Source of the DNA: an uncultured Candidatus Saccharibacteria bacterium
Lineage (GTDB): Bacteria > Patescibacteriota > Minisyncoccia > Phycocordibacterales > WO2-35-19
Reading direction: 5' to 3'
Assembly: GCA_964519145.1 (NCBI GenBank)
Contig: CAZFHL010000001.1
Span: forward strand, 682-64,681
DNA: 64,000 bases
Shown here in pieces: positions 12,237 through 58,173 of this stretch (the first letter of the stretch is position 1; each line of letters starts with the position of its first letter). The notes below the pieces were generated by a model, which saw nothing but the letters and a program-made list of their open reading frames with translations, was not told the DNA's origin and searched no databases. The position numbers and the translations under genes are program-made.

Positions 12237-12384
12237 TTAATATTTTGATTTAAAAAATTCCAATGCAATTATGCATTGGAATTTTATTTTATATAGATAA
12301 TTGTTATGGGTTCAATCTATTGCTCATATAATATATTATGTTATTATCTTATGCGGATAGATCAGTTTAAGGAGTAAAATAGCT

Positions 12385-12745: not shown

Positions 12746-12976
12746 TTGGAGGTCTCTATGAGAGTATTAGAGAATAATAATTACATTGAGATTATTTGTG
12801 TCCGTTGTGGTTCAAAACTTGCAGTTAATGTCGAAGATATAAAATATCATGAAATACATCATCATTGTTCTGCAGAGTTTTATGTTTGCTGTGGAGCTTG
12901 TGGTAGGCGTACTGGTGTAGATTCTAGTCGTATTCCAAAAACTTGGATTAGAAAAATTATTTCTGATGATTTTTAA
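12746..12976 (+). CDS. hypothetical zinc-ribbon protein
   Basis: CVRCGSKL...CCGACGRR Cys pairs. SD ggaggtctctATG. Confidence 0.35.
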   Translation: MEVSMRVLENNNYIEIICVRCGSKLAVNVEDIKYHEIHHHCSAEFYVCCGACGRRTGVDSSRIPKTWIRKIISDDF

Positions 12977-13108
12977 ATTTAAAAAATTTCGGTACAATTG
13001 TGTACCGAAATTTTTATATATTTAAATTACCAATAATAATCTTTAGATAAAATATAAATTGATTTTTATAACTTCAAGTATTAACATCAAATTAGATTTG
13101 AGGAGCTT

Positions 13109-22435: not shown

Positions 22436-22744
22436 ATGGAAAACGATATACAATTTTTAGATTTTGTTGTTAAGGGTTTGGTAGATCATCCTGAGTCTGT
22501 AAAAATAAACAGAACAGTTGATGAAATGGGAGTATTATTAACATTAGATGTACACCCAGAAGATATGGGTAAAATAATCGGAAGATCTGGAAATACGGCA
22601 AAAGCTATAAGAATATTACTCAGAGTTGTTGGTATGAAAAACAATGCTAGAGTAAATCTAAAAATAAATGAGCCGGTTGGAGGAAAGAGAAGTGAATCAT
22701 CTCTAAAATCAGTAGATGATGTGATGGATGATTTGAAACTTTAA
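22436..22744 (+). CDS. KH-domain RNA-binding protein (UPF0109/YlqC-like)
   Basis: GKIIGRSGNTAKAIRILL KH motif. The rpsP-KH-trmD gene order is conserved. Confidence 0.8.
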   Translation: MENDIQFLDFVVKGLVDHPESVKINRTVDEMGVLLTLDVHPEDMGKIIGRSGNTAKAIRILLRVVGMKNNARVNLKINEPVGGKRSESSLKSVDDVMDDLKL

Positions 22745-22817: not shown

Positions 22818-22943
22818 CTTCAAAAGTCCTAGAACATAAAACCTTTTTGGGGCCTAGCGAGTTTGACGAGACGAGCTCGAGGAATTTTTTAGCAAAAAAA
22901 TATCCGTGGTCCAAAAAGGTTTTATCGAGAAAGACTTTTGAAG
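22818..22943 (-). repeat. interspersed structured repeat, copy A (core in reverse orientation)
   Basis: Core gcctagcgag...agctcgaggaattttttagcaaaaaaatatccgtgg. Arms cttcaaaagtcctag.../...gacttttgaag are self-complementary. Confidence 0.7.
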
Positions 22944-22963: not shown

Positions 22964-23686
22964 ATGAACTTCCATATAATTACACTTTTTAAAGAAAGCT
23001 TCAGCTCATACTTAAGTGAGTCTATTTTAGGTAGAGCTATTAAAAATAAAATTATAAAAATACATTTTTATAATCCTAGAGATTTTGCAAATAATAAATT
23101 TAAACACATAGATCAAAGGCCTTATGGGGGTGGTCCTGGTATGGTTTTGCAAGCGGAACCCGTAGCTAAAGCTATTGAGAAAGCTATAAAAATAATAAAA
23201 ATTAAAAATCAAAAACTGGAAATTAAATCTAAAATTGAAAATTCAAAAATTAAATTTAAAAGTAAAAAAGGGGATAATAAATTTAAAATCAAAATCATAT
23301 TTTTTTCGCCCAGTGGAAAGAGGTTTGATACAAGCTATGCTAAAAAATTGTCTAAAAATTATAATGATATTGTTTTAATTTGTGGTAGATACGAAGGTAT
23401 TGACGCAAGGATTAAAAAGATTTTTAAAATGGACGAAGTTTCAATAGGAGATTTTGTATTAACAGGAGGTGAAATACCAGCTATGGTTTTGATTGATTGT
23501 ATAGGAAGACAAATAAAGGGTTTTTTAGGAAATTTTGATTCAAGAGAAGAAGAGAGGATTTCTAGCTCAGATGTTTATACAAGACCAGAAGTTTTGGAAT
23601 TTAATGCTAAAAAATATAGAGTGCCAAAAATTTTATTGTCTGGTAACCATAAAAAGATAGATGAATGGAAAGAAAAAAGTAAATAA
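22964..23686 (+). CDS. trmD: tRNA (guanine37-N1)-methyltransferase with a Lys-rich insertion
   Basis: N-terminal ITLFKESF. GRYEGIDARI. C-terminal SIGDFVLTGGEIPA (SPOUT knot). Low-complexity insert at about aa 70-115. Confidence 0.85.
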   Translation: MNFHIITLFKESFSSYLSESILGRAIKNKIIKIHFYNPRDFANNKFKHIDQRPYGGGPGMVLQAEPVAKAIEKAIKIIKIKNQKLEIKSKIENSKIKFKSKKGDNKFKIKIIFFSPSGKRFDTSYAKKLSKNYNDIVLICGRYEGIDARIKKIFKMDEVSIGDFVLTGGEIPAMVLIDCIGRQIKGFLGNFDSREEERISSSDVYTRPEVLEFNAKKYRVPKILLSGNHKKIDEWKEKSK

Positions 23687-36028: not shown

Positions 36029-36065
36029 TAAATCTCTTTCAAAAGTTTTTATTATTTTGAATTAA

Positions 36066-36183
36066 AAAACTCTTTCTCATCACACCTTTTTGAACCACGG
36101 ATATTTTTTTGCTAAAAAATTCCTCGAGCTCGCTTCAGTCAAGCTCGCTAGGCTTCAAAAAGGTATGATTTCGATGAGTTTTG
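36066..36183 (+). repeat. interspersed structured repeat, copy B
   Basis: aactctttctcatcacacctttttgaa-CCACGGATATTTTTTTGCTAAAAAATTCCTCGAGCTCGcttcagtcaaGCTCGCTAGGC-ttcaaaaaggtatgatttcgatgagtt. Confidence 0.7.
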
Positions 36184-36197
36184 TAATTTAAAATAAT

Positions 36198-36228
36198 AAA
36201 TCCCCGGTTATAAAAACCGGGGATTTTA
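36198..36228. terminator. bidirectional Rho-independent terminator between convergent genes
   Basis: aaatccccggtt-ataaaa-accggggatttt with A and T tracts on both sides. Confidence 0.75.
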
Positions 36229-42635: not shown

Positions 42636-42762
42636 CTCTTTCAAAACTCGTCGAAATCATACCTTTTTGAAGCCTAGCGAGCATAACTCTCGCGAGCTCG
42701 AGGAATTTTTTAGCAAAAAAATATCCGTGGTTCAAAAAGGTGTGATGAGAAAGAGTTTTGAA
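42636..42762 (-). repeat. interspersed structured repeat, copy C (reverse orientation)
   Basis: Core gcctagcgagcataactctcgcgagctcgaggaattttttagcaaaaaaatatccgtgg. Arms ctctttcaaaactcgtcgaaatcatacctttttgaa/ttcaaaaaggtgtgatgagaaagagttttgaa. Confidence 0.7.
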
Positions 42763-42829
42763 ATTTTAAGATGAGAAACACTCTTAGATTTAAATTGCTT
42801 TTAGGTTTTGTATTTATTATTATTGGTAT

Positions 42830-44605
42830 ATGCAAGACTCAAAAAATAATATAGGAGTATTTAGTGTATTTAAAGTTTTTTGGAAATCCATTAAACCTCA
42901 AAAATTTAGTTTCTTTTTCAATATTTTTGCTTTTTCCTTTGTTTCAATCATTGGACTTATGAATCCAATTTATTATAAAAAGTTTTTTGATTTATTAGGA
43001 GATGATATAAATAAAAATCAAACCAATCTTTTGATAGATGTCTTGTTAGTAATTTTATTTATAAATTTAATATCTTGGATTATTAGAAGAGTGGCAAATT
43101 TATCTATAAATGATTTTGAATCAAAGACAATCGCCAGAATCAAACAAAATTCTTTTGATTATATGATAAGTCATTCACATTCTTTTTTCGTAGACAATTT
43201 TGCAGGTTCTCTTGTCCAAAAAGTCGGAAGATTTGCAAAGTCTTTCGAAAAATTATACGACACAATCACCTTTAGCGTACTACCATTATTAATTAGTGTC
43301 GGGGTCTCTATTTATGTAGTTTACAGGGAAGAGCCTTTCATAGCTTATATAATAGCTATATGGTCTATTTTTGTGATGACATTTAGCTATTTATTTTCTA
43401 TATGGAAATTGAAATATGATTTAGCTGTTGCAGAATCCGATTCTAAAACCACGGGTGTGCTTTCAGATATTATAACCAATCATAACAATGTTGATTTGTT
43501 TGGTAATAAAGATTTTGAATCAAAAAAATTTAAAGAAGTTTTAAATGAACAAGCAAAAGTCACTAAATTCAATTGGAACATAATGAGTATTTTTGACGGT
43601 GTTCAAGGATTTATGATTGTATTGATAGAATTTTTTGTATTTTTTTATGCTGTTAAATTTTGGAAAGACAATATGATTACTTTAGGAACTTTCGTCTTGA
43701 TTCAGGTTTATGTGGTTGGATTAAGTCATAGGTTATGGGATATAGGACATATTGTTAGAAATATTTATGAGAGTTTTGCAGATTCTAAAGAAATGGTAAA
43801 TATACTTAGTACACCACATAATATAAAAGATAAAATAAATGCTAAAGATATTTCAATCAAAAATGGCTTTATTAATTTTGAAAAAGTTTCTTTTGGTTTT
43901 AATAAAGAAAATTTAATAATAGATGATTTTAATTTGAATATAGAAGCAAGACAAAAAATTGCTTTGATAGGCCCTTCTGGAGCAGGCAAATCCACAATAA
44001 TAAAACTCATTATTCGATTATACGATTCATTGTCCGGGGATATATTTATAGATAATCAAAATATAGAAGAAGTGAGTCAGGTTAGTTTAAGAAAAAATAT
44101 AAGTTTAGTTCCGCAAGACCCTATTTTATTTCACAGAAGTTTATTTGAAAATATAAAATATGGAAGAATTGATGCTACAGATGAAGAAGTTTTTGAAGCC
44201 TCTCGGCTTGCACATTGTGATGAATTTATTTTAAATTTGAAAGACAAATATGACACAATGGTGGGTGAAAGAGGGGTGAAATTGTCTGGAGGAGAGAGAC
44301 AAAGAATTGCAATTGCAAGAGCTATATTAAAAAATGCACCTATACTTATTTTAGATGAAGCTACTTCAAGTTTAGATTCTCATTCTGAAAGTTTGATCCA
44401 AGATGCTTTAAATAAATTGATGGAAAATAAGACGGTTATAGTTATAGCGCATAGACTTTCAACAATAATAAAAATGGATAGGATTTTGGTTTTAAAGAAA
44501 GGTAAAATAATAGAAGATGGAGATCATAAAAGTTTGCTTGAAAAACCAAGAGGTTTATATAAAAAATTGTGGAATTTACAAGCCGGGGGTTTTTTGAAGG
44601 TTTGA
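42830..44605 (+). CDS. ABC exporter, fused permease/ATPase (MsbA-like)
   Basis: Six transmembrane helices followed by NBD. Walker A GPSGAGKST. Signature LSGGERQR. Walker B ILILDEATS. Confidence 0.85.
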   Translation: MQDSKNNIGVFSVFKVFWKSIKPQKFSFFFNIFAFSFVSIIGLMNPIYYKKFFDLLGDDINKNQTNLLIDVLLVILFINLISWIIRRVANLSINDFESKTIARIKQNSFDYMISHSHSFFVDNFAGSLVQKVGRFAKSFEKLYDTITFSVLPLLISVGVSIYVVYREEPFIAYIIAIWSIFVMTFSYLFSIWKLKYDLAVAESDSKTTGVLSDIITNHNNVDLFGNKDFESKKFKEVLNEQAKVTKFNWNIMSIFDGVQGFMIVLIEFFVFFYAVKFWKDNMITLGTFVLIQVYVVGLSHRLWDIGHIVRNIYESFADSKEMVNILSTPHNIKDKINAKDISIKNGFINFEKVSFGFNKENLIIDDFNLNIEARQKIALIGPSGAGKSTIIKLIIRLYDSLSGDIFIDNQNIEEVSQVSLRKNISLVPQDPILFHRSLFENIKYGRIDATDEEVFEASRLAHCDEFILNLKDKYDTMVGERGVKLSGGERQRIAIARAILKNAPILILDEATSSLDSHSESLIQDALNKLMENKTVIVIAHRLSTIIKMDRILVLKKGKIIEDGDHKSLLEKPRGLYKKLWNLQAGGFLKV

Positions 44606-44617
44606 TAGCTGTTTAAA

Positions 44618-44746
44618 TTTCAAAACTCTTTCTCATCATACCTTTTTGAACCACGGATATTTTTTTGCTAAAAAATTCCTGCGAAGCTGCGCCAGTCGCG
44701 CTCGCTAGGCTTCAAAAAGGTATGATTTCGAGGAGTTTTGAAAAGA
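44618..44746 (+). repeat. interspersed structured repeat, copy D
   Basis: tttcaaaactctttctcatcatacctttttgaa-CCACGGATATTTTTTTGCTAAAAAATTCCTgcgaagctgcgccagtcgCGCTCGCTAGGC-ttcaaaaaggtatgatttcgaggagttttgaa. Confidence 0.7.
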
Positions 44747-45691: not shown

Positions 45692-45825
45692 GCAAACCGT
45701 CTTTCTGGTATTAGTATTTCTGTGCACGGATATTTTTCTGGTGAAAAATTCCTCGTGCTCGCTCCGTCGAGACTCGCAAGGCACAGAAATACTAATACCA
45801 GAAAGACGGTTTGTAATAAATCTGA
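45692..45825 (+). repeat. interspersed structured repeat, subtype 2, copy E (perfect 30-bp inverted-repeat arms)
   Basis: aaaccgtctttctggtattagtatttctgtgc-ACGGATATTTTTctggtgAAAAATTCCTCGTGCTCGCTCCGTCGAGACTCGCAAGGCAC-agaaatactaataccagaaagacggttt. Confidence 0.7.
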
Positions 45826-45868
45826 TATAAAAAATTAGTCTATATTTGTTGATTTTTTTAAATCATTT

Positions 45869-46777
45869 TTGTATGATGCTATAAGAATTGAAAGGAGTTT
45901 TATGCTTGTAAAGCCAAAAAATCCCTATAGAGAAGTTTGGAATAAAGATGAATTGTCATCTTTGCTCGGGTCTGTTCGTAGGAGAGTTTTGCCAAAAGAT
46001 ATTAGTATTGAAGGTAGAACTTCTGGTGCTATAATCCATAAAATTGCTGAATTGCGAAATGAAGGTGTGATAAAAGTAAAATTCGTAAGAGTCTGGACAA
46101 AAGAAGAAGATGAATCTCTTATTGCTCAAGTTGAAGCTGGTAAAAATTTGGATCAAATCAAAATAAAAGGTAGAGAATCTTCTGCAATATATGCAAGAAT
46201 AAAAAGATTGAAAAAGGATAATCCAAATATTTCTTTAAAACGAAGGTTAAGTGGTGTTCAAATTCAAGCAAGAAACAGAAGAGAAGAGATTAAAAAAAGA
46301 TCATTAGAAAAGGCAAGATTTATGAAAAGACTAAAATCTTTTTTGAAATGTAAGGGTAAATATTGGCCAGCCACTCTTGTTTCCAGGAAACTTCATTGTA
46401 ATGAAGATAGAGTCTCTCGTTTACGGAAAACATTAGGTTTGAAGATTGTTCATCAAGAGGCCATGAAGAAGAGCAAAGTTTATAGGGATCATTATCAATC
46501 TATTTTGGCTAAAAAAAGATCTTTAAAAGAGAAAAGAGAAATGGATGCTAGATTGGCTTTAGCAGAAGAAGAGAGAAAAAAGCAAAAAATTCAAAAAGAA
46601 AAATCAGATGATTTGGAGAGAGTTTTTAGGAATTTCACTAGTCAGAGGTGTACCTATTCACTTAAAAAGTGTTCTAGGTGCTCTAAGTATTGGTATAATT
46701 GCGTTAATTTTTTTGCTGTAAAGACGGATCCTGTTTATGGCAAACAATTGACTGATGTTTGCAGGGCATGCATTTAA
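45869..46777 (+). CDS. hypothetical highly basic protein with C-terminal Cys cluster
   Basis: 302 aa, Lys/Arg-rich. C-terminal CxxCxKYWYNC...CRAC. SD aaaggagttttATG. No homology recognised. Confidence 0.45.
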   Translation: MYDAIRIERSFMLVKPKNPYREVWNKDELSSLLGSVRRRVLPKDISIEGRTSGAIIHKIAELRNEGVIKVKFVRVWTKEEDESLIAQVEAGKNLDQIKIKGRESSAIYARIKRLKKDNPNISLKRRLSGVQIQARNRREEIKKRSLEKARFMKRLKSFLKCKGKYWPATLVSRKLHCNEDRVSRLRKTLGLKIVHQEAMKKSKVYRDHYQSILAKKRSLKEKREMDARLALAEEERKKQKIQKEKSDDLERVFRNFTSQRCTYSLKKCSRCSKYWYNCVNFFAVKTDPVYGKQLTDVCRACI

Positions 46778-46811
46778 GATTTTTAAAATAAATAAATATT
46801 AAGATTTTTTA

Positions 46812-46840
46812 AAAAAGACCAATTAAACAATTGGTCTTTT
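46812..46840 (+). terminator. Rho-independent terminator
   Basis: aaaagaccaatt-aaacaa-ttggtctttt. Confidence 0.7.
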
Positions 46841-46969
46841 AAAATATTAGGCTTTATGTTTGAAGATTTTTGAAAGAACCTTATTTAAATTTAATTAATT
46901 ACTAATACATTAATTTTAACTGCCATATTTCAAAGGTGAACGGGTGTTTTCGGAATCACGGACAAAAAC

Positions 46970-46999
46970 TTGACTTTTTAGACTATCGTATGTTATAAT
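46970..46999 (+). promoter_or_regulatory. sigma70 promoter with extended -10 (TTGACT-18 nt-TGtTATAAT) driving the DGR target gene
   Basis: TTGACT at 46970-46975. TGtTATAAT at 46991-46999. Lies 95-145 bp upstream of the candidate starts. Confidence 0.5.
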
Positions 47000-47143
47000 A
47001 TATAGTAGAAATTGGAAATAGTTTTTCAGGTGGTCATAGTTAAAAGTTACTTACAAATCAAAGAGTGATTCAAAGAAATTAAGTATTTTTTAGTTATGAC
47101 CACTACCAGAGGTGGAGGTCAAACAGAAAGGAGGCTGACGATG

Positions 47144-47770
47144 AATGACATCCTCAGCCAAGCTCTCGAGGGGTTCATCGGACCCCTTAGACAGCTCATG
47201 ATTAACCTGCTCGGCCCAAACGGGCCAGAGTGGGGAGAGGAACTGAAGAAGTTTCTCCGAAAGGAGCCGACATGGTCGGCTCCGAAAATCCTCCAATTTG
47301 TGTCAGAGGTGGTGGTCCCCGCCACCTCGCAGTTCGTTCGGAGGGAGAAGTTCGTCGTCGCCACCTCGGCCTCGGCCGAGGTGAAGATCAGCTGGATTGG
47401 AGGAAATTTCTCCAGCTGGTTCCTTGCCGGTGACGGCAAGGTCGAGGAGGTAGGTGGGGAGACCACCCTCCTCGCCCATCGGTTGACCGAGAGGTCAACC
47501 GATGGGCCGATCATCGCCGAGCTGGGTGGCGAGAAGGTGGCGGAGACCACCCTCGTCGAGATGTTCGCCCTGCTGAAAAAGCAGGGTCGGGGTCAGGAGG
47601 GTACCCTCCTGACCAACAGGTACGCGAATGTCTTCTACATTCGCGACCGTGCGAATGTTCTTCGCACAGTTGACTGCTACTGGCACGGCGTTGGCTGGGG
47701 TGTGGGTGCCTACGAGGTTTCCCGTCCGTACCCGTGGGGTGTGGGCTATCAGATCTTTTCCCGTAGGTAA
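47144..47770 (+). CDS. DGR target (variable) protein, GC-rich, C-terminal VR; fold unassigned
   Basis: SD gaaaggaggctgacgATG at 47144. The track ORF starts at 47096 without an SD. The C-terminal 35 aa are encoded by the VR. About 60% GC against about 30% for the genome. No signal peptide. Not a recognisable CLec RGGSW pattern. Confidence 0.6.
   Translation, partial: NDILSQALEGFIGPLRQLMINLLGPNGPEWGEELKKFLRKEPTWSAPKILQFVSEVVVPATSQFVRREKFVVATSASAEVKISWIGGNFSSWFLAGDGKVEEVGGETTLLAHRLTERSTDGPIIAELGGEKVAETTLVEMFALLKKQGRGQEGTLLTNRYANVFYIRDRANVLRTVDCYWHGVGWGVGAYEVSRPYPWGVGYQIFSRR
47661..47766 (+). repeat. DGR variable repeat (VR)
   Basis: 106 bp with 90 of 106 identical to the TR. 15 of 16 mismatches fall at TR adenines (VR positions 47672, 47678, 47684, 47691, 47699, 47700, 47705, 47706, 47711, 47729, 47738, 47739, 47747, 47764, 47766). 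One falls at a non-A position (47724 G vs T). Confidence 0.8.
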
Positions 47771-47852
47771 TTTGAGTCTTAGGTTCTGACCCTTTGACTC
47801 TTTGACCCCTTGATACTTTGCATTCGTGCACGGTCTCAGGGGGTCTTTTTTT
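47771..47852 (+). promoter_or_regulatory. GC-rich hairpin/terminator 3' of VR (putative DGR target-recognition element)
   Basis: gaccccttgatactttgcattcgtgcacggtctcagggggtc + T7. 6-bp GC stem with inner palindrome cgtgcacg. Preceded by a direct ctttgac x3 motif. Confidence 0.45.
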
Positions 47853-48115
47853 ATACTCCAAAAACACATATAATTATTTTGAAATTATGTGTTACAGAAA
47901 AGTTAAAATTTTAGTTTTTCTGTCATGGTTTTAAAATATTTATAATGAGAGTTGTGTTGGATAAATCTTATACAAGAGTGTTATAAATATTTTTCAAAAA
48001 AATTAAAAGTTGGTATATGAAACTAATGGACTTTTATGTCTAGGGTAAGATTCAATCTCTTATGATTTAAGGGGTGGTGGAATGGGTGGTTTTATATACG
48101 AAAAGGTTTGTTTTA

Positions 48116-48221
48116 TTCGCACAGTTAACTGCAACTGGAACGGCGATGGCTGGAATGTGAATGCCAACGAGGTTTCCCTTCCGAACCCGTGGAATGTGGG
48201 CAATCAGATCTTTTCCCGAAA
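48116..48221 (+). repeat. DGR template repeat (TR)
   Basis: Adenine-rich counterpart of the VR. AAC/AAT codons in TR correspond to D, Y, H, G and R codons in VR. Flanked by AT-rich sequence contiguous with avd and RT. Confidence 0.8.
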
Positions 48222-48224
48222 CTA

Positions 48225-48554
48225 TTATTTTTCTCCTGTATTTACAGGAGTTTTTTGTTTTAGATTTTCTTGAAGACCTTTTCTCCATCCACCTAACATT
48301 TTACCTATTTCATCTAAATCAAGGGAAACTTTTATATATTTTTCATTTGGTACAAGTTTGCTTTCCCATGCAAGTTGCATAAAGAATTTTAGATTATCTA
48401 GTTTTGATATTGTTTTAGATAAAAATAATATTTTTTGTTCAGATACTAGATAAACAGAAGCAAAAGTTAATTCTAAAACATCTAAGAAAGATTGTTCTAT
48501 TCTGTTTCCAATACCAAATCTTTCTATCTTTGGAAAATCTCTATGAATAATCAT
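48225..48554 (-). CDS. avd: Avd-like accessory variability determinant (four-helix-bundle, PF05635-like)
   Basis: 109-aa basic protein. C-terminal DEIGKMLGGWRKG matches the Bordetella phage bAvd motif EVGRILGSWIARVNRKG. Preceding L..L..F..LA helix also matches. Oriented opposite to TR and RT. Confidence 0.55.
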   Translation of the reverse strand: MIIHRDFPKIERFGIGNRIEQSFLDVLELTFASVYLVSEQKILFLSKTISKLDNLKFFMQLAWESKLVPNEKYIKVSLDLDEIGKMLGGWRKGLQENLKQKTPVNTGEK

Positions 48555-48659
48555 CCAGTTTTTGTAAACTTCTTTTTCTTTTGATAAAACTTTTGGTAAA
48601 GAGTTTGTCGGGGGGGGGTAAACTATTTGTCATATTTTATGTTCTAATTTTAAGTTATA

Positions 48660-57852: not shown

Positions 57853-58028
57853 AAGCCAGTCGTGTGCGGGGCAAGAGGAGGTTTGTCCCGCACCTCATAT
57901 TAGAATCAGATGTCTATGGTTTTGATAAGAGGTTATAAGTTAGCAGAGATTTTTGAAATAATTCTGAGTTCTAAAATGAACTTTAATGAAATGCTTCAAA
58001 AGTCTTTCTATAATAAAATCTTAATACT

Positions 58029-58065
58029 AAAACACAAAAGATGCCCAAAGCATCTTTTGTGTTTT
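58029..58065 (+). terminator. Rho-independent terminator
   Basis: aacacaaaagatgc-ccaaa-gcatcttttgtgtttt. Confidence 0.7.
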
Positions 58066-58173
58066 AATAAAAATGTAATATTTTCTATACAATATTTTTA
58101 AATAAATAATAGTTGACTTTTTAACTTTACTATTTTAGTCTTTTTTTAGTTAGTTCGTTGAAAAGGAGTGTGT

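Follow-up and report, generated by a model that had tools for sequence, protein, structure and literature searches.

A palindromic repeat family of Patescibacteria built around a conserved, predicted three-way junction

Seven copies of a structured repeat in a 64-kb window

Patescibacteria, also called the candidate phyla radiation (CPR), have tiny, gene-dense genomes that are usually regarded as repeat-poor. Here we describe a family of palindromic elements in a 64,000-nucleotide stretch of contig CAZFHL010000001.1, from an uncultured Candidatus Saccharibacteria bacterium; this whole stretch is called the window below. A reading made from its sequence alone had listed seven interspersed, structured repeats of roughly 125 bp (copies A to G), and our covariance model, repeat finder and alignment recover every one of them at the place given (Table 1). 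The copies are 118-134 bp long and all are intergenic, in both orientations, as had been claimed; we call plus the strand that gives the core as CACGGATATTTT..AAAATTCCTCG. From A to G, the stop codon of the left-hand gene lies 9, 74, 38, 14, 13, 13 and 45 nt before the start coordinate of that reading, which bears out the position assigned to them at gene 3' ends, a preference that extends to other genomes. Most of the neighbors had been named correctly (a KhpA-type KH protein, a cyclophilin, a DEAD-box helicase, an ABC exporter and a TrhO-like rhodanese), but the gene called trmB encodes a TrmB-family transcription regulator, not a tRNA methyltransferase. Copy B is located in the interior of a conserved operon, khpA-trmD, as annotated with Pfam.

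The core motif AAAAATTCCTCGWGCTCGCT, allowing up to three mismatches, has five matches in the window, against 0.01 expected from shuffled sequences, and the alignment of all seven copies has a mean column identity of 72%. We then used a covariance model (R1, from alignment A2) trained on 85 copies, six of them from the window and copy A left out. Run without filters over the entire window, it returned exactly seven loci, scoring 59-93 bits. Since the next score was only 13 bits, the list of seven is complete. Copy A was found at 59 bits (E = 1e-14) although it was outside the training set, and it is divergent, with GCAUAAUUUUC/GAAAAUUUGC as helix P2. The covariance-model search that had been called for thus yields only these seven in the window, and many further copies exist in other genomes. 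The proposed division into two arm subtypes is real, with one set of arms in A-E and another in F and G. Copies D and E are mutually inverted (inverted repeats I2 and I3).

Two observations concern the DNA downstream of copy G. Positions 57008-58167 form an unusually long non-coding stretch, with a G+C-rich hairpin at ~57041-57073 and a longer G+C-rich stretch downstream; this region has no Rfam match and may represent a gene remnant or an RNA that is not annotated. Within it, 17 nt at 57993-58009 (GCTTCAAAAGTCTTTCT; repeat I19, similarity 57967-58009) are identical to the 5' end of copy B. Weaker similarity runs into the flank of B, neither core nor 3' arm follows, and the fragment may be a truncated copy.

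Table 1. Positions in the window of the repeat copies, of the structural parts of copy C and of the neighboring retroelement
Feature	Position	Strand	Description
Copy A	275-400	-	between short open reading frame (12-266) and tRNA-Gln (474-546); covariance-model match 297-376, 59.3 bits
Copy B	22818-22943	-	between khpA (22436-22744) and trmD (22964-23686); covariance-model match 22841-22920, 89.2 bits
Copy C	36066-36183	+	between convergent cyclophilin and NAPRTase genes; covariance-model match 36084-36164, 92.7 bits
Copy C, extended palindrome	36048-36200		inverted repeat I7, 36048-36094 / 36154-36200, 83% complementary
Copy C, outer stem, 5' side	36066-36072	+	AAAACTC, partner GAGTTTT 36176-36182; 7 bp; from sequence and fold
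Copy C, asymmetric internal loop	36073-36078	+	TTTCTC opposite TTCGAT 36170-36175; conserved; from sequence and fold
Copy C, stem P1, 5' strand	36079-36096	+	partner 36151-36169; variable, ~18 bp; from fold
Copy C, three-way-junction core	36097-36150	+	~54 nt, starts with junction AC; from alignments A2 and A5 and consensus structure
Copy C, hairpin P2	36099-36123	+	3 bp, bulged U, 7 bp, loop UGCU
Copy C, hairpin P3	36125-36150	+	3 bp, 2x2 internal loop, 4 bp, loop of 4-7 nt
Copy D	42636-42762	-	between DEAD-box helicase and ABC exporter genes; covariance-model match 42661-42741, 81.4 bits
Copy E	44618-44746	+	between ABC exporter gene and trhO; covariance-model match 44640-44721, 75.1 bits
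Copy F (subtype 2)	45692-45825	+	between trhO and inserted cassette with diversity-generating retroelement; covariance-model match 45713-45793, 90.9 bits
Copy F, arms	45693-45725 / 45781-45813		33 bp, 100% complementary (inverted repeat I16)
Copy G (subtype 2)	56878-57007	+	3' of TrmB-family regulator gene; covariance-model match 56903-56983, 88.5 bits; direct repeat family D1
Copy G, arms	56873-56915 / 56971-57013		inverted repeat I9
Retroelement target gene	47096-47770		variable repeat 47658-47763
Retroelement template repeat	48113-48218
Retroelement bAvd-like gene	48225-48554	-
Retroelement reverse transcriptase	48660-49655

Fold, covariation and the question of DNA or RNA

Every window copy is predicted to fold into a long outer stem enclosing two hairpins, P2 and P3, which creates a three-way-junction core of ~55 nt. 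In copy C, a single U separates the two hairpins. The predicted energies range from -38 to -71 kcal/mol, with z-scores from -5.5 to -13.6 on either strand, and the two strands fold about equally well; copy F marks the extreme (-71 kcal/mol, z = -13.6). The asymmetric internal loop of copy C has counterparts elsewhere, its motifs TCTTTCTC and TC(A/G)A(C/T)GA recurring 18-19 nt from the core in loci L028, L052, L075, L095 and L097 of other genomes, whose P1 sequences are unrelated. Other subfamilies, copy F included, have unbroken arms of up to 33-53 bp. On the opposite ("antisense") strand, the internal loop of P3 is a tandem GA/GA, and a U run comes after the hairpin.

This fold is strongly supported by covariation. 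Across the 85 copies, 91% of the cells hold standard pairs, and the covariation score is 0.50, compared with 0.16 in shuffles (none of 500 reached 0.50) and with 0.07-0.14 when partners were slid by one to three columns. Changes on both sides occur in all 13 P1 arm pairs, in both apical pairs of P2 and in six of the seven P3 pairs. The remaining P2 pairs are invariant in this set merely because the search pattern fixed them, and in the divergent members recovered by the model P2 covaries along its full length (GGA/UCC, GCA/UGC, ACA/UGU, GAA/UUC, AGA/UCU). A lack of further copies, a lack of covariation or an explanation as plain terminators had been named in advance as grounds for abandoning the family, and we found none of them.

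Covariation in three helices and conserved unpaired bases are also what would be expected of a structured RNA, acting in cis as a terminator, an RNase III site or a 3'-end stabilizer similar to REP or Correia sequences, or giving rise to a small RNA from its long stem. Several observations fit this alternative. The copies prefer gene 3' ends, the flanking gene pairs are more often convergent than divergent (18 vs 8), copy-carrying genomes encode RNase III, and this enzyme is documented to cleave transcripts that contain Correia sequences (PMC10969869). Moreover, the opposite strand folds more stably in five of the seven window copies, and in C and D a terminator scan flagged P3 plus the U run on that strand. 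These two hits are the only ones that the scan gave, and the whole element has no U tract after its long stem, so that we rejected an intrinsic terminator.

Strandedness argues against an RNA more generally. In a gapless comparison of the arms of 99 copies, we counted 2,081 Watson-Crick pairs, 66 G.T, 88 A.C and 244 other mismatches; wobble pairs, at ~2%, are no commoner than their mirror image A.C, and neither strand is therefore favored. Orientation to the transcribed strand is mixed both between and within genes. Flanked by co-directional genes, 33 copies have the plus and 21, a minority, the terminator-like minus orientation, and inside open reading frames (ORFs) about 17 are sense and 10 antisense. 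The clearest case is found in the MnmA genes of two genomes, whose proteins are 67% identical. Both have an element in the same loop, with homologous arms (24/30 and 24/30), between which the core is reverse-complemented in place and, once flipped, identical at 54 of 55 positions. The closest MnmA homologue (80% identical) is likewise in opposite orientation, judging by the reading frame of its encoded peptide. Since the core was inverted in place and yet conserved, its conservation is independent of the strand that is transcribed. If the inverted arms recombined, the center would be flipped, which would account for the mixed orientations.

Taken together, covariation in three helices, rare and unbiased G.U pairs, mixed orientation and the inversion in MnmA indicate, at the level of sequence comparison, that the core structure is selected or maintained in DNA and not as a strand-specific RNA. 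We consider the RNA explanation improbable, and of the sequence-only reading's suggestion of a "REP/MITE-like element or small ncRNA" it is the first half that describes the family better, although it is no classical REP or MITE; the orientations, the scarcity of G.U pairs and the flipped core leave the second half unsupported. Searches against Rfam 15 point the same way. At gathering thresholds only two tRNAs in the whole window reached threshold, and at E <= 10 the surroundings of copies E and F gave only long hairpins of the miRNA-precursor type, far below thresholds. Template switching in imperfect palindromes has been reported to homogenize arms as well as to generate hairpins and preserve them (PMC8604942, PMC8794818, PMC7202029). 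It offers a mutational route to compensation by Watson-Crick pairs only, and covariation here is consequently no proof of selection on RNA. The family is in this respect a cautionary case, in which covariation alone would have pointed to a non-coding RNA. A small ORF antisense to the core was ruled out too, because the common CGAG..CTAG variant puts a TAG in frame (alignment A2).

Landing sites, multiplication and gene blocks

Where both neighboring genes are on one strand, the median distance of the core is 47 nt from the upstream stop and 89 nt from the downstream start, and the stop is the nearer of the two in 38 of 54 cases. About one quarter of the copies, however, are situated inside ORFs that read straight through them. 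ORFs in the retrieved loci were assigned by a longest-ORF rule, and some of these calls, at ORF starts, are artifacts (L099, L111). Of ten in-gene cases checked, Pfam confirmed nine, with domains recognized to either side of the element; the hosts are SecA, TsaD (two genomes, same site), Dus (two sites), MnmA, PGM/PMM, an M23 peptidase and PheT. The consensus core, as read from its sequence, is open in five of six frames, and five frames are in use, encoding HGYFSAEKFLVLAPSRSQ, TDIFLLKNSSCSRRR, DLRARRREHEEFFSRKISV, TCERDGASTRNFSAEKYPC and LASATARARGIFQQKNIR. Open frames average 3.8 per core, compared with 2.9 in shuffles (100 copies), and 2.1 compared with 1.2 when 25-nt arms are included.

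These insertions land in surface loops and linkers. They add 30-45 residues to essential proteins (PheRS-beta, SecA, TsaD, MnmA, Dus), and many MnmA homologues also have the element. When SecA, PheT and MnmA are compared with homologues, the insert sizes, which bear on whether the arms come with the core or are copied from the flanks, fall between "core only" and "core plus full arms", with about 19 extra residues in PheT and about 30 in MnmA; part of the palindrome coincides with residues that can be aligned to native ones. A bias toward tRNA-related hosts (PheT, TsaD, Dus and MnmA, besides the vicinity of TrmD, TrhO and tRNA-Gln) was considered and set aside, being post hoc and at odds with the mixed orientation.

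Some neighboring observations concern the same sites. The MnmA loop holds other recurrent inserted peptides in homologues P0246-P0358 (for example QKIGQANGLADTCFLTREEIRGPESELFS, KKAQTQVLGSPSQTRPDHSPDQFS, RISNVEC..NIQHSVFE and VESKKLKVES), and an insert of the QVLGSP..PDHS type is also present in a PheT linker (P0185). With several recurrent inserts in these two places, the CPR may hold further families of in-frame insertions. Perfect hairpins of 25-35 bp in essential mRNAs would be potential RNase III substrates, yet they are tolerated; genomes with an element in pheT encode the enzyme (L203 18505-19200, L206 19131-19826, L207 17588-18313).

When the family multiplies within a genome, the arms are copied along with the core. 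Copies C and D, at unrelated loci, are 93% identical over 127 nt, arms included (repeat I1), and D and E are 97% identical over 69 nt in the halves facing the ABC exporter gene. Since these near-identical copies share their arms, the multiplying unit includes them. F and G are 84% identical, and their arm differences are compensated on both sides. The distribution is patchy. In 80 related loci (737 kb), anchored on trhO (53-73% identity) and chosen regardless of the element, the first and the broadened model alike found a single copy, compared with seven in the 64-kb window.

In the closest syntenic relative (L117/L118; TrhO 72% identical), the DEAD-box gene, trhO and bipA are contiguous, copies D, E and F are missing, and no element occurs in 17 kb. 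Two blocks of the window are extra with respect to this relative, namely the ABC exporter between the inverted copies D and E (42636-44746) and an unknown ORF followed by the retroelement block, preceded by F (45692-49778). Because both are absent where the three genes are contiguous, the elements mark the borders of variable gene blocks. A link to the reverse transcriptase of the neighboring retroelement was considered, and we found no evidence for it.

Such borders, together with the fact that each window copy follows a gene and with the shape of the copies (imperfect palindromes of 100-130 bp with unpaired internal loops), recall integron attC sites that mark cassettes, one per gene 3' end. 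Other features speak against that comparison. The copies do not share one orientation to the gene before them (A, B and D differ from C, E, F and G), their termini (TTTCAAAACTC / GAGTTTTGAAA) lack the R''/R' core sites RYYYAAC/GTTRRRY, conservation is central instead of terminal, the flanked genes are housekeeping genes in conserved operons such as khpA-trmD, and copies also occur in frame inside genes. The attC explanation is close to refuted, and we regard it as very improbable.

Elements also often occur as close convergent pairs, 45-140 nt apart, as at L054 (6786-7035), L061 (6001-6209), L068 (6682-6887), L072 (6327-6584), L079 (1224-1462) and L028 (1696-1978). These pairs combine two P2 subtypes, a GGA-type with a GCA-, ACA-, GAA- or AGA-type, and never two of the GGA-type.

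Kinship of the family and what maintains its center

To determine the distribution of the family, we searched GTDB, each species being represented by one genome, for a core pattern in which 20 bases are specified. The pattern was found in at least 116 genome stretches, nearly all from metagenome-assembled genomes (MAGs) of Patescibacteria, and several MAGs contribute multiple element-bearing contigs. Paceibacterota, Nomura-, Taylor-, Yonath-, Zambryski-, Wildermuth-, Vogel- and Moraniibacteria and Minisyncoccia are among the matches listed, as are entries labeled Saccharibacteria. Since the few matches outside the CPR lack the rest of the core, the family appears, from these pattern matches, to be restricted to Patescibacteria. 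A single, uninspected match in IMG/VR was taken as chance, and a phage vector was rejected. A full-text literature search, with sequence strings and with CPR combined with repeat, MITE, palindromic element or structured RNA, retrieved no description of the family, nor did our searches find any published repeat family for the CPR. This ~125-bp hairpin-forming family is thus apparently undescribed to date, and it can occupy ~1.4% of a genome region.

Closest in kind are the Rickettsia palindromic elements (RPEs), which are described as deteriorating after an ancestral burst. In-frame palindromic insertions are their hallmark, and they too are ~100-150-bp hairpin-forming repeats in the small genomes of host-dependent bacteria (PMC10969869). 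Like RPEs, the CPR elements lie between genes and, in other genomes (no copy of the window is in a gene), in frame within unrelated housekeeping genes, to which they add a peptide. Both lack a known transposase, occupy orthologous positions across species and decay. The CPR family differs in conserving a central three-way junction across many lineages, with arms that vary freely yet stay complementary, and in its orthologous copies the core is still 91% identical although silent sites are saturated. As the hosts belong to different phyla and the comparison is by description, not by sequence, we claim likeness in kind and not membership.

[quoted passage not shown] MITEs are defined, however, by conserved terminal inverted repeats that match a parent insertion sequence and by target-site duplications, and we found neither in the CPR family, whose arms are inverted repeats with a sequence that varies by subfamily and genome. 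The usual logic of MITEs is in fact reversed, the center being conserved and the ends free. REP/BIME sequences and REPINs with their RAYT transposases are palindromes 3' of genes, probably recognized as folded single strands, and occur in inverted pairs. REPs are 20-40 nt long, with a conserved 5' GTAG-like tetranucleotide and a stem sequence conserved within the genome, and to our knowledge they have not been reported in frame inside essential genes. The CPR unit, by comparison, measures 100-130 bp and has a branched center, and no copy-flanked RAYT gene was present in ~108 neighborhoods. Finally, in attC sites and IS200/IS605 hairpins a folded strand with unpaired or extrahelical bases is recognized, and not a duplex sequence, as we propose for the CPR family; target-site duplications are absent there too, and stem sequences vary with pairing kept. 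But attC sites have conserved ends (R and L boxes), a variable apex, a uniform orientation and a linked integrase, the CPR family being the opposite with none of these, and IS200/IS605 elements have two distinct end hairpins that flank tnpA/tnpB, a feature that the CPR family does not share. The element therefore belongs to none of the named families tested. It fails the defining features of MITEs, REPs and attC sites and matches RPEs in kind only.

The explanation that we favor, and to which we give an even chance, is a non-autonomous palindromic mobile DNA element of the RPE/MITE kind that is recognized through its folded center. Such an element, of ~100-130 bp, would consist of a ~55-nt center in which one DNA strand forms a three-way junction with two short hairpins and fixed unpaired bases, flanked by complementary arms of 7-50 bp, to which some subfamilies, including subtype 1 of the window, add an asymmetric internal loop. 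Movement and maintenance would need a protein encoded elsewhere in the genome, which would recognize the folded center in single-stranded or cruciform DNA and not the ends, by analogy with HUH/Y1 transposases and integron integrases, which recognize hairpins. Flipping in place would occur most simply by recombination between the arms, and arm complementarity is probably kept, at least in part, by template switching in the palindrome during replication.

Several results weigh against this explanation. A nucleotide-level empty site was not found, TrhO of the nearest relatives being only 72-73% identical; mobility is consequently deduced from copy similarity and patchiness, and not observed. In the flanks of B, C, D and E, aligned where similarity ends, there is no conserved target tetranucleotide and no target-site duplication, which the sequence-only reading had proposed as the sign of a MITE, and termini vary from one subfamily to another. 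Nor is there enrichment of a transposase, a RAYT or any further protein family within 2.5 kb of ~108 loci; in an all-against-all clustering of 553 neighboring ORFs, the largest cluster covered six of these loci. The lack of duplications, conserved termini and an enriched neighboring family is why we call the element non-autonomous. Furthermore, of seven close pairs examined, six are convergent and combine two different subtypes, for which this explanation does not account (the sampling demanded one GGA-type member per locus).

A misfit comes from PheT, where the element fills the linker ahead of the C-terminal anticodon-binding domain in 19 of 120 homologues, once antisense and in some frame-shifted. 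Homologues up to 80% identical to carriers have remnants at this place, either deleted or degenerate, which makes the insertion an old one that decays in some lineages. In six orthologous copies, nevertheless, the core is 91% identical, compared with 59% for the proteins and, in the most conserved flanking coding blocks, 62% overall and 42% at third codon positions. The arms of these copies, 59-67% identical, are still paired, compensated changes occur in P2, P3 and arms, and the peptide variants LAPSRSQ, LGPSPSQ and LGSTASQ track base pairing in P3. Amino-acid changes that follow base pairing argue for selection on nucleic acid and not on protein, and a core conserved where silent sites are saturated argues for purifying selection or a conversion-type drive on nucleic acid. 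In three of the six carriers the PheT copy is the sole copy in ~22 kb. Judged from these alignments, conservation exceeds what is expected of decaying selfish DNA.

These data would fit a DNA structural site that serves the host or is actively driven, bound by a putative lineage-specific protein, with mobility being secondary. It would be maintained by purifying selection or homing-like conversion wherever the binding protein is present, and might act as a recombination or integration site, in chromosome organization, or as a replication or repair signal. The core of MnmA, so much better conserved than the protein despite its inversion, conservation regardless of orientation, the persistence of intact sole copies and the two gene blocks bordered by D, E and F are in keeping with such a role at the DNA level. 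However, the element is missing from most related genomes and is thus not generally required, it decays in many lineages, the neighboring ORFs revealed no partner gene, and insertion in essential genes and bursts of near-identical copies are typical of selfish DNA. We see such a site as a possible but rather doubtful account.

A further, rather doubtful possibility would treat the junction as a functional module and not as a mere passenger. A putative CPR protein would recognize the folded DNA and either copy or convert the element into new or decayed sites, as a "homing hairpin", or use it as a genomic signal. If true, this would jointly explain near-perfect conservation in essential genes whose silent sites are saturated, conservation through inversion and patchy presence, and it would define a new class of structure-recognized element, mobile or signaling, in the largest radiation of uncultivated bacteria. 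The core is conserved between lineages with orthologous proteins no more than 50-65% identical, which points to an enzyme or binding protein specific for the structure, and the covariance models make whole-genome surveys and phylogenetic profiling for such a partner feasible. Because its copies add residues to essential proteins and border variable blocks, the family also bears on gene calling, protein modeling and MAG assembly in the CPR.

The window has other features of note. The diversity-generating retroelement (47096-49655; Table 1) has repeats in which 14 of 15 mismatches are at template adenines. A segment of ~150 nt occurs twice, at 5634-5787 and 7488-7640, 1.85 kb apart and 73-88% identical (D7/D8), and two terminator-like palindromes of the AAAAAATTCCAATGCAATTATGCATTGGAATTTT type (12240-12298 and 12969-13027; D12), 729 nt apart, are 71% identical.

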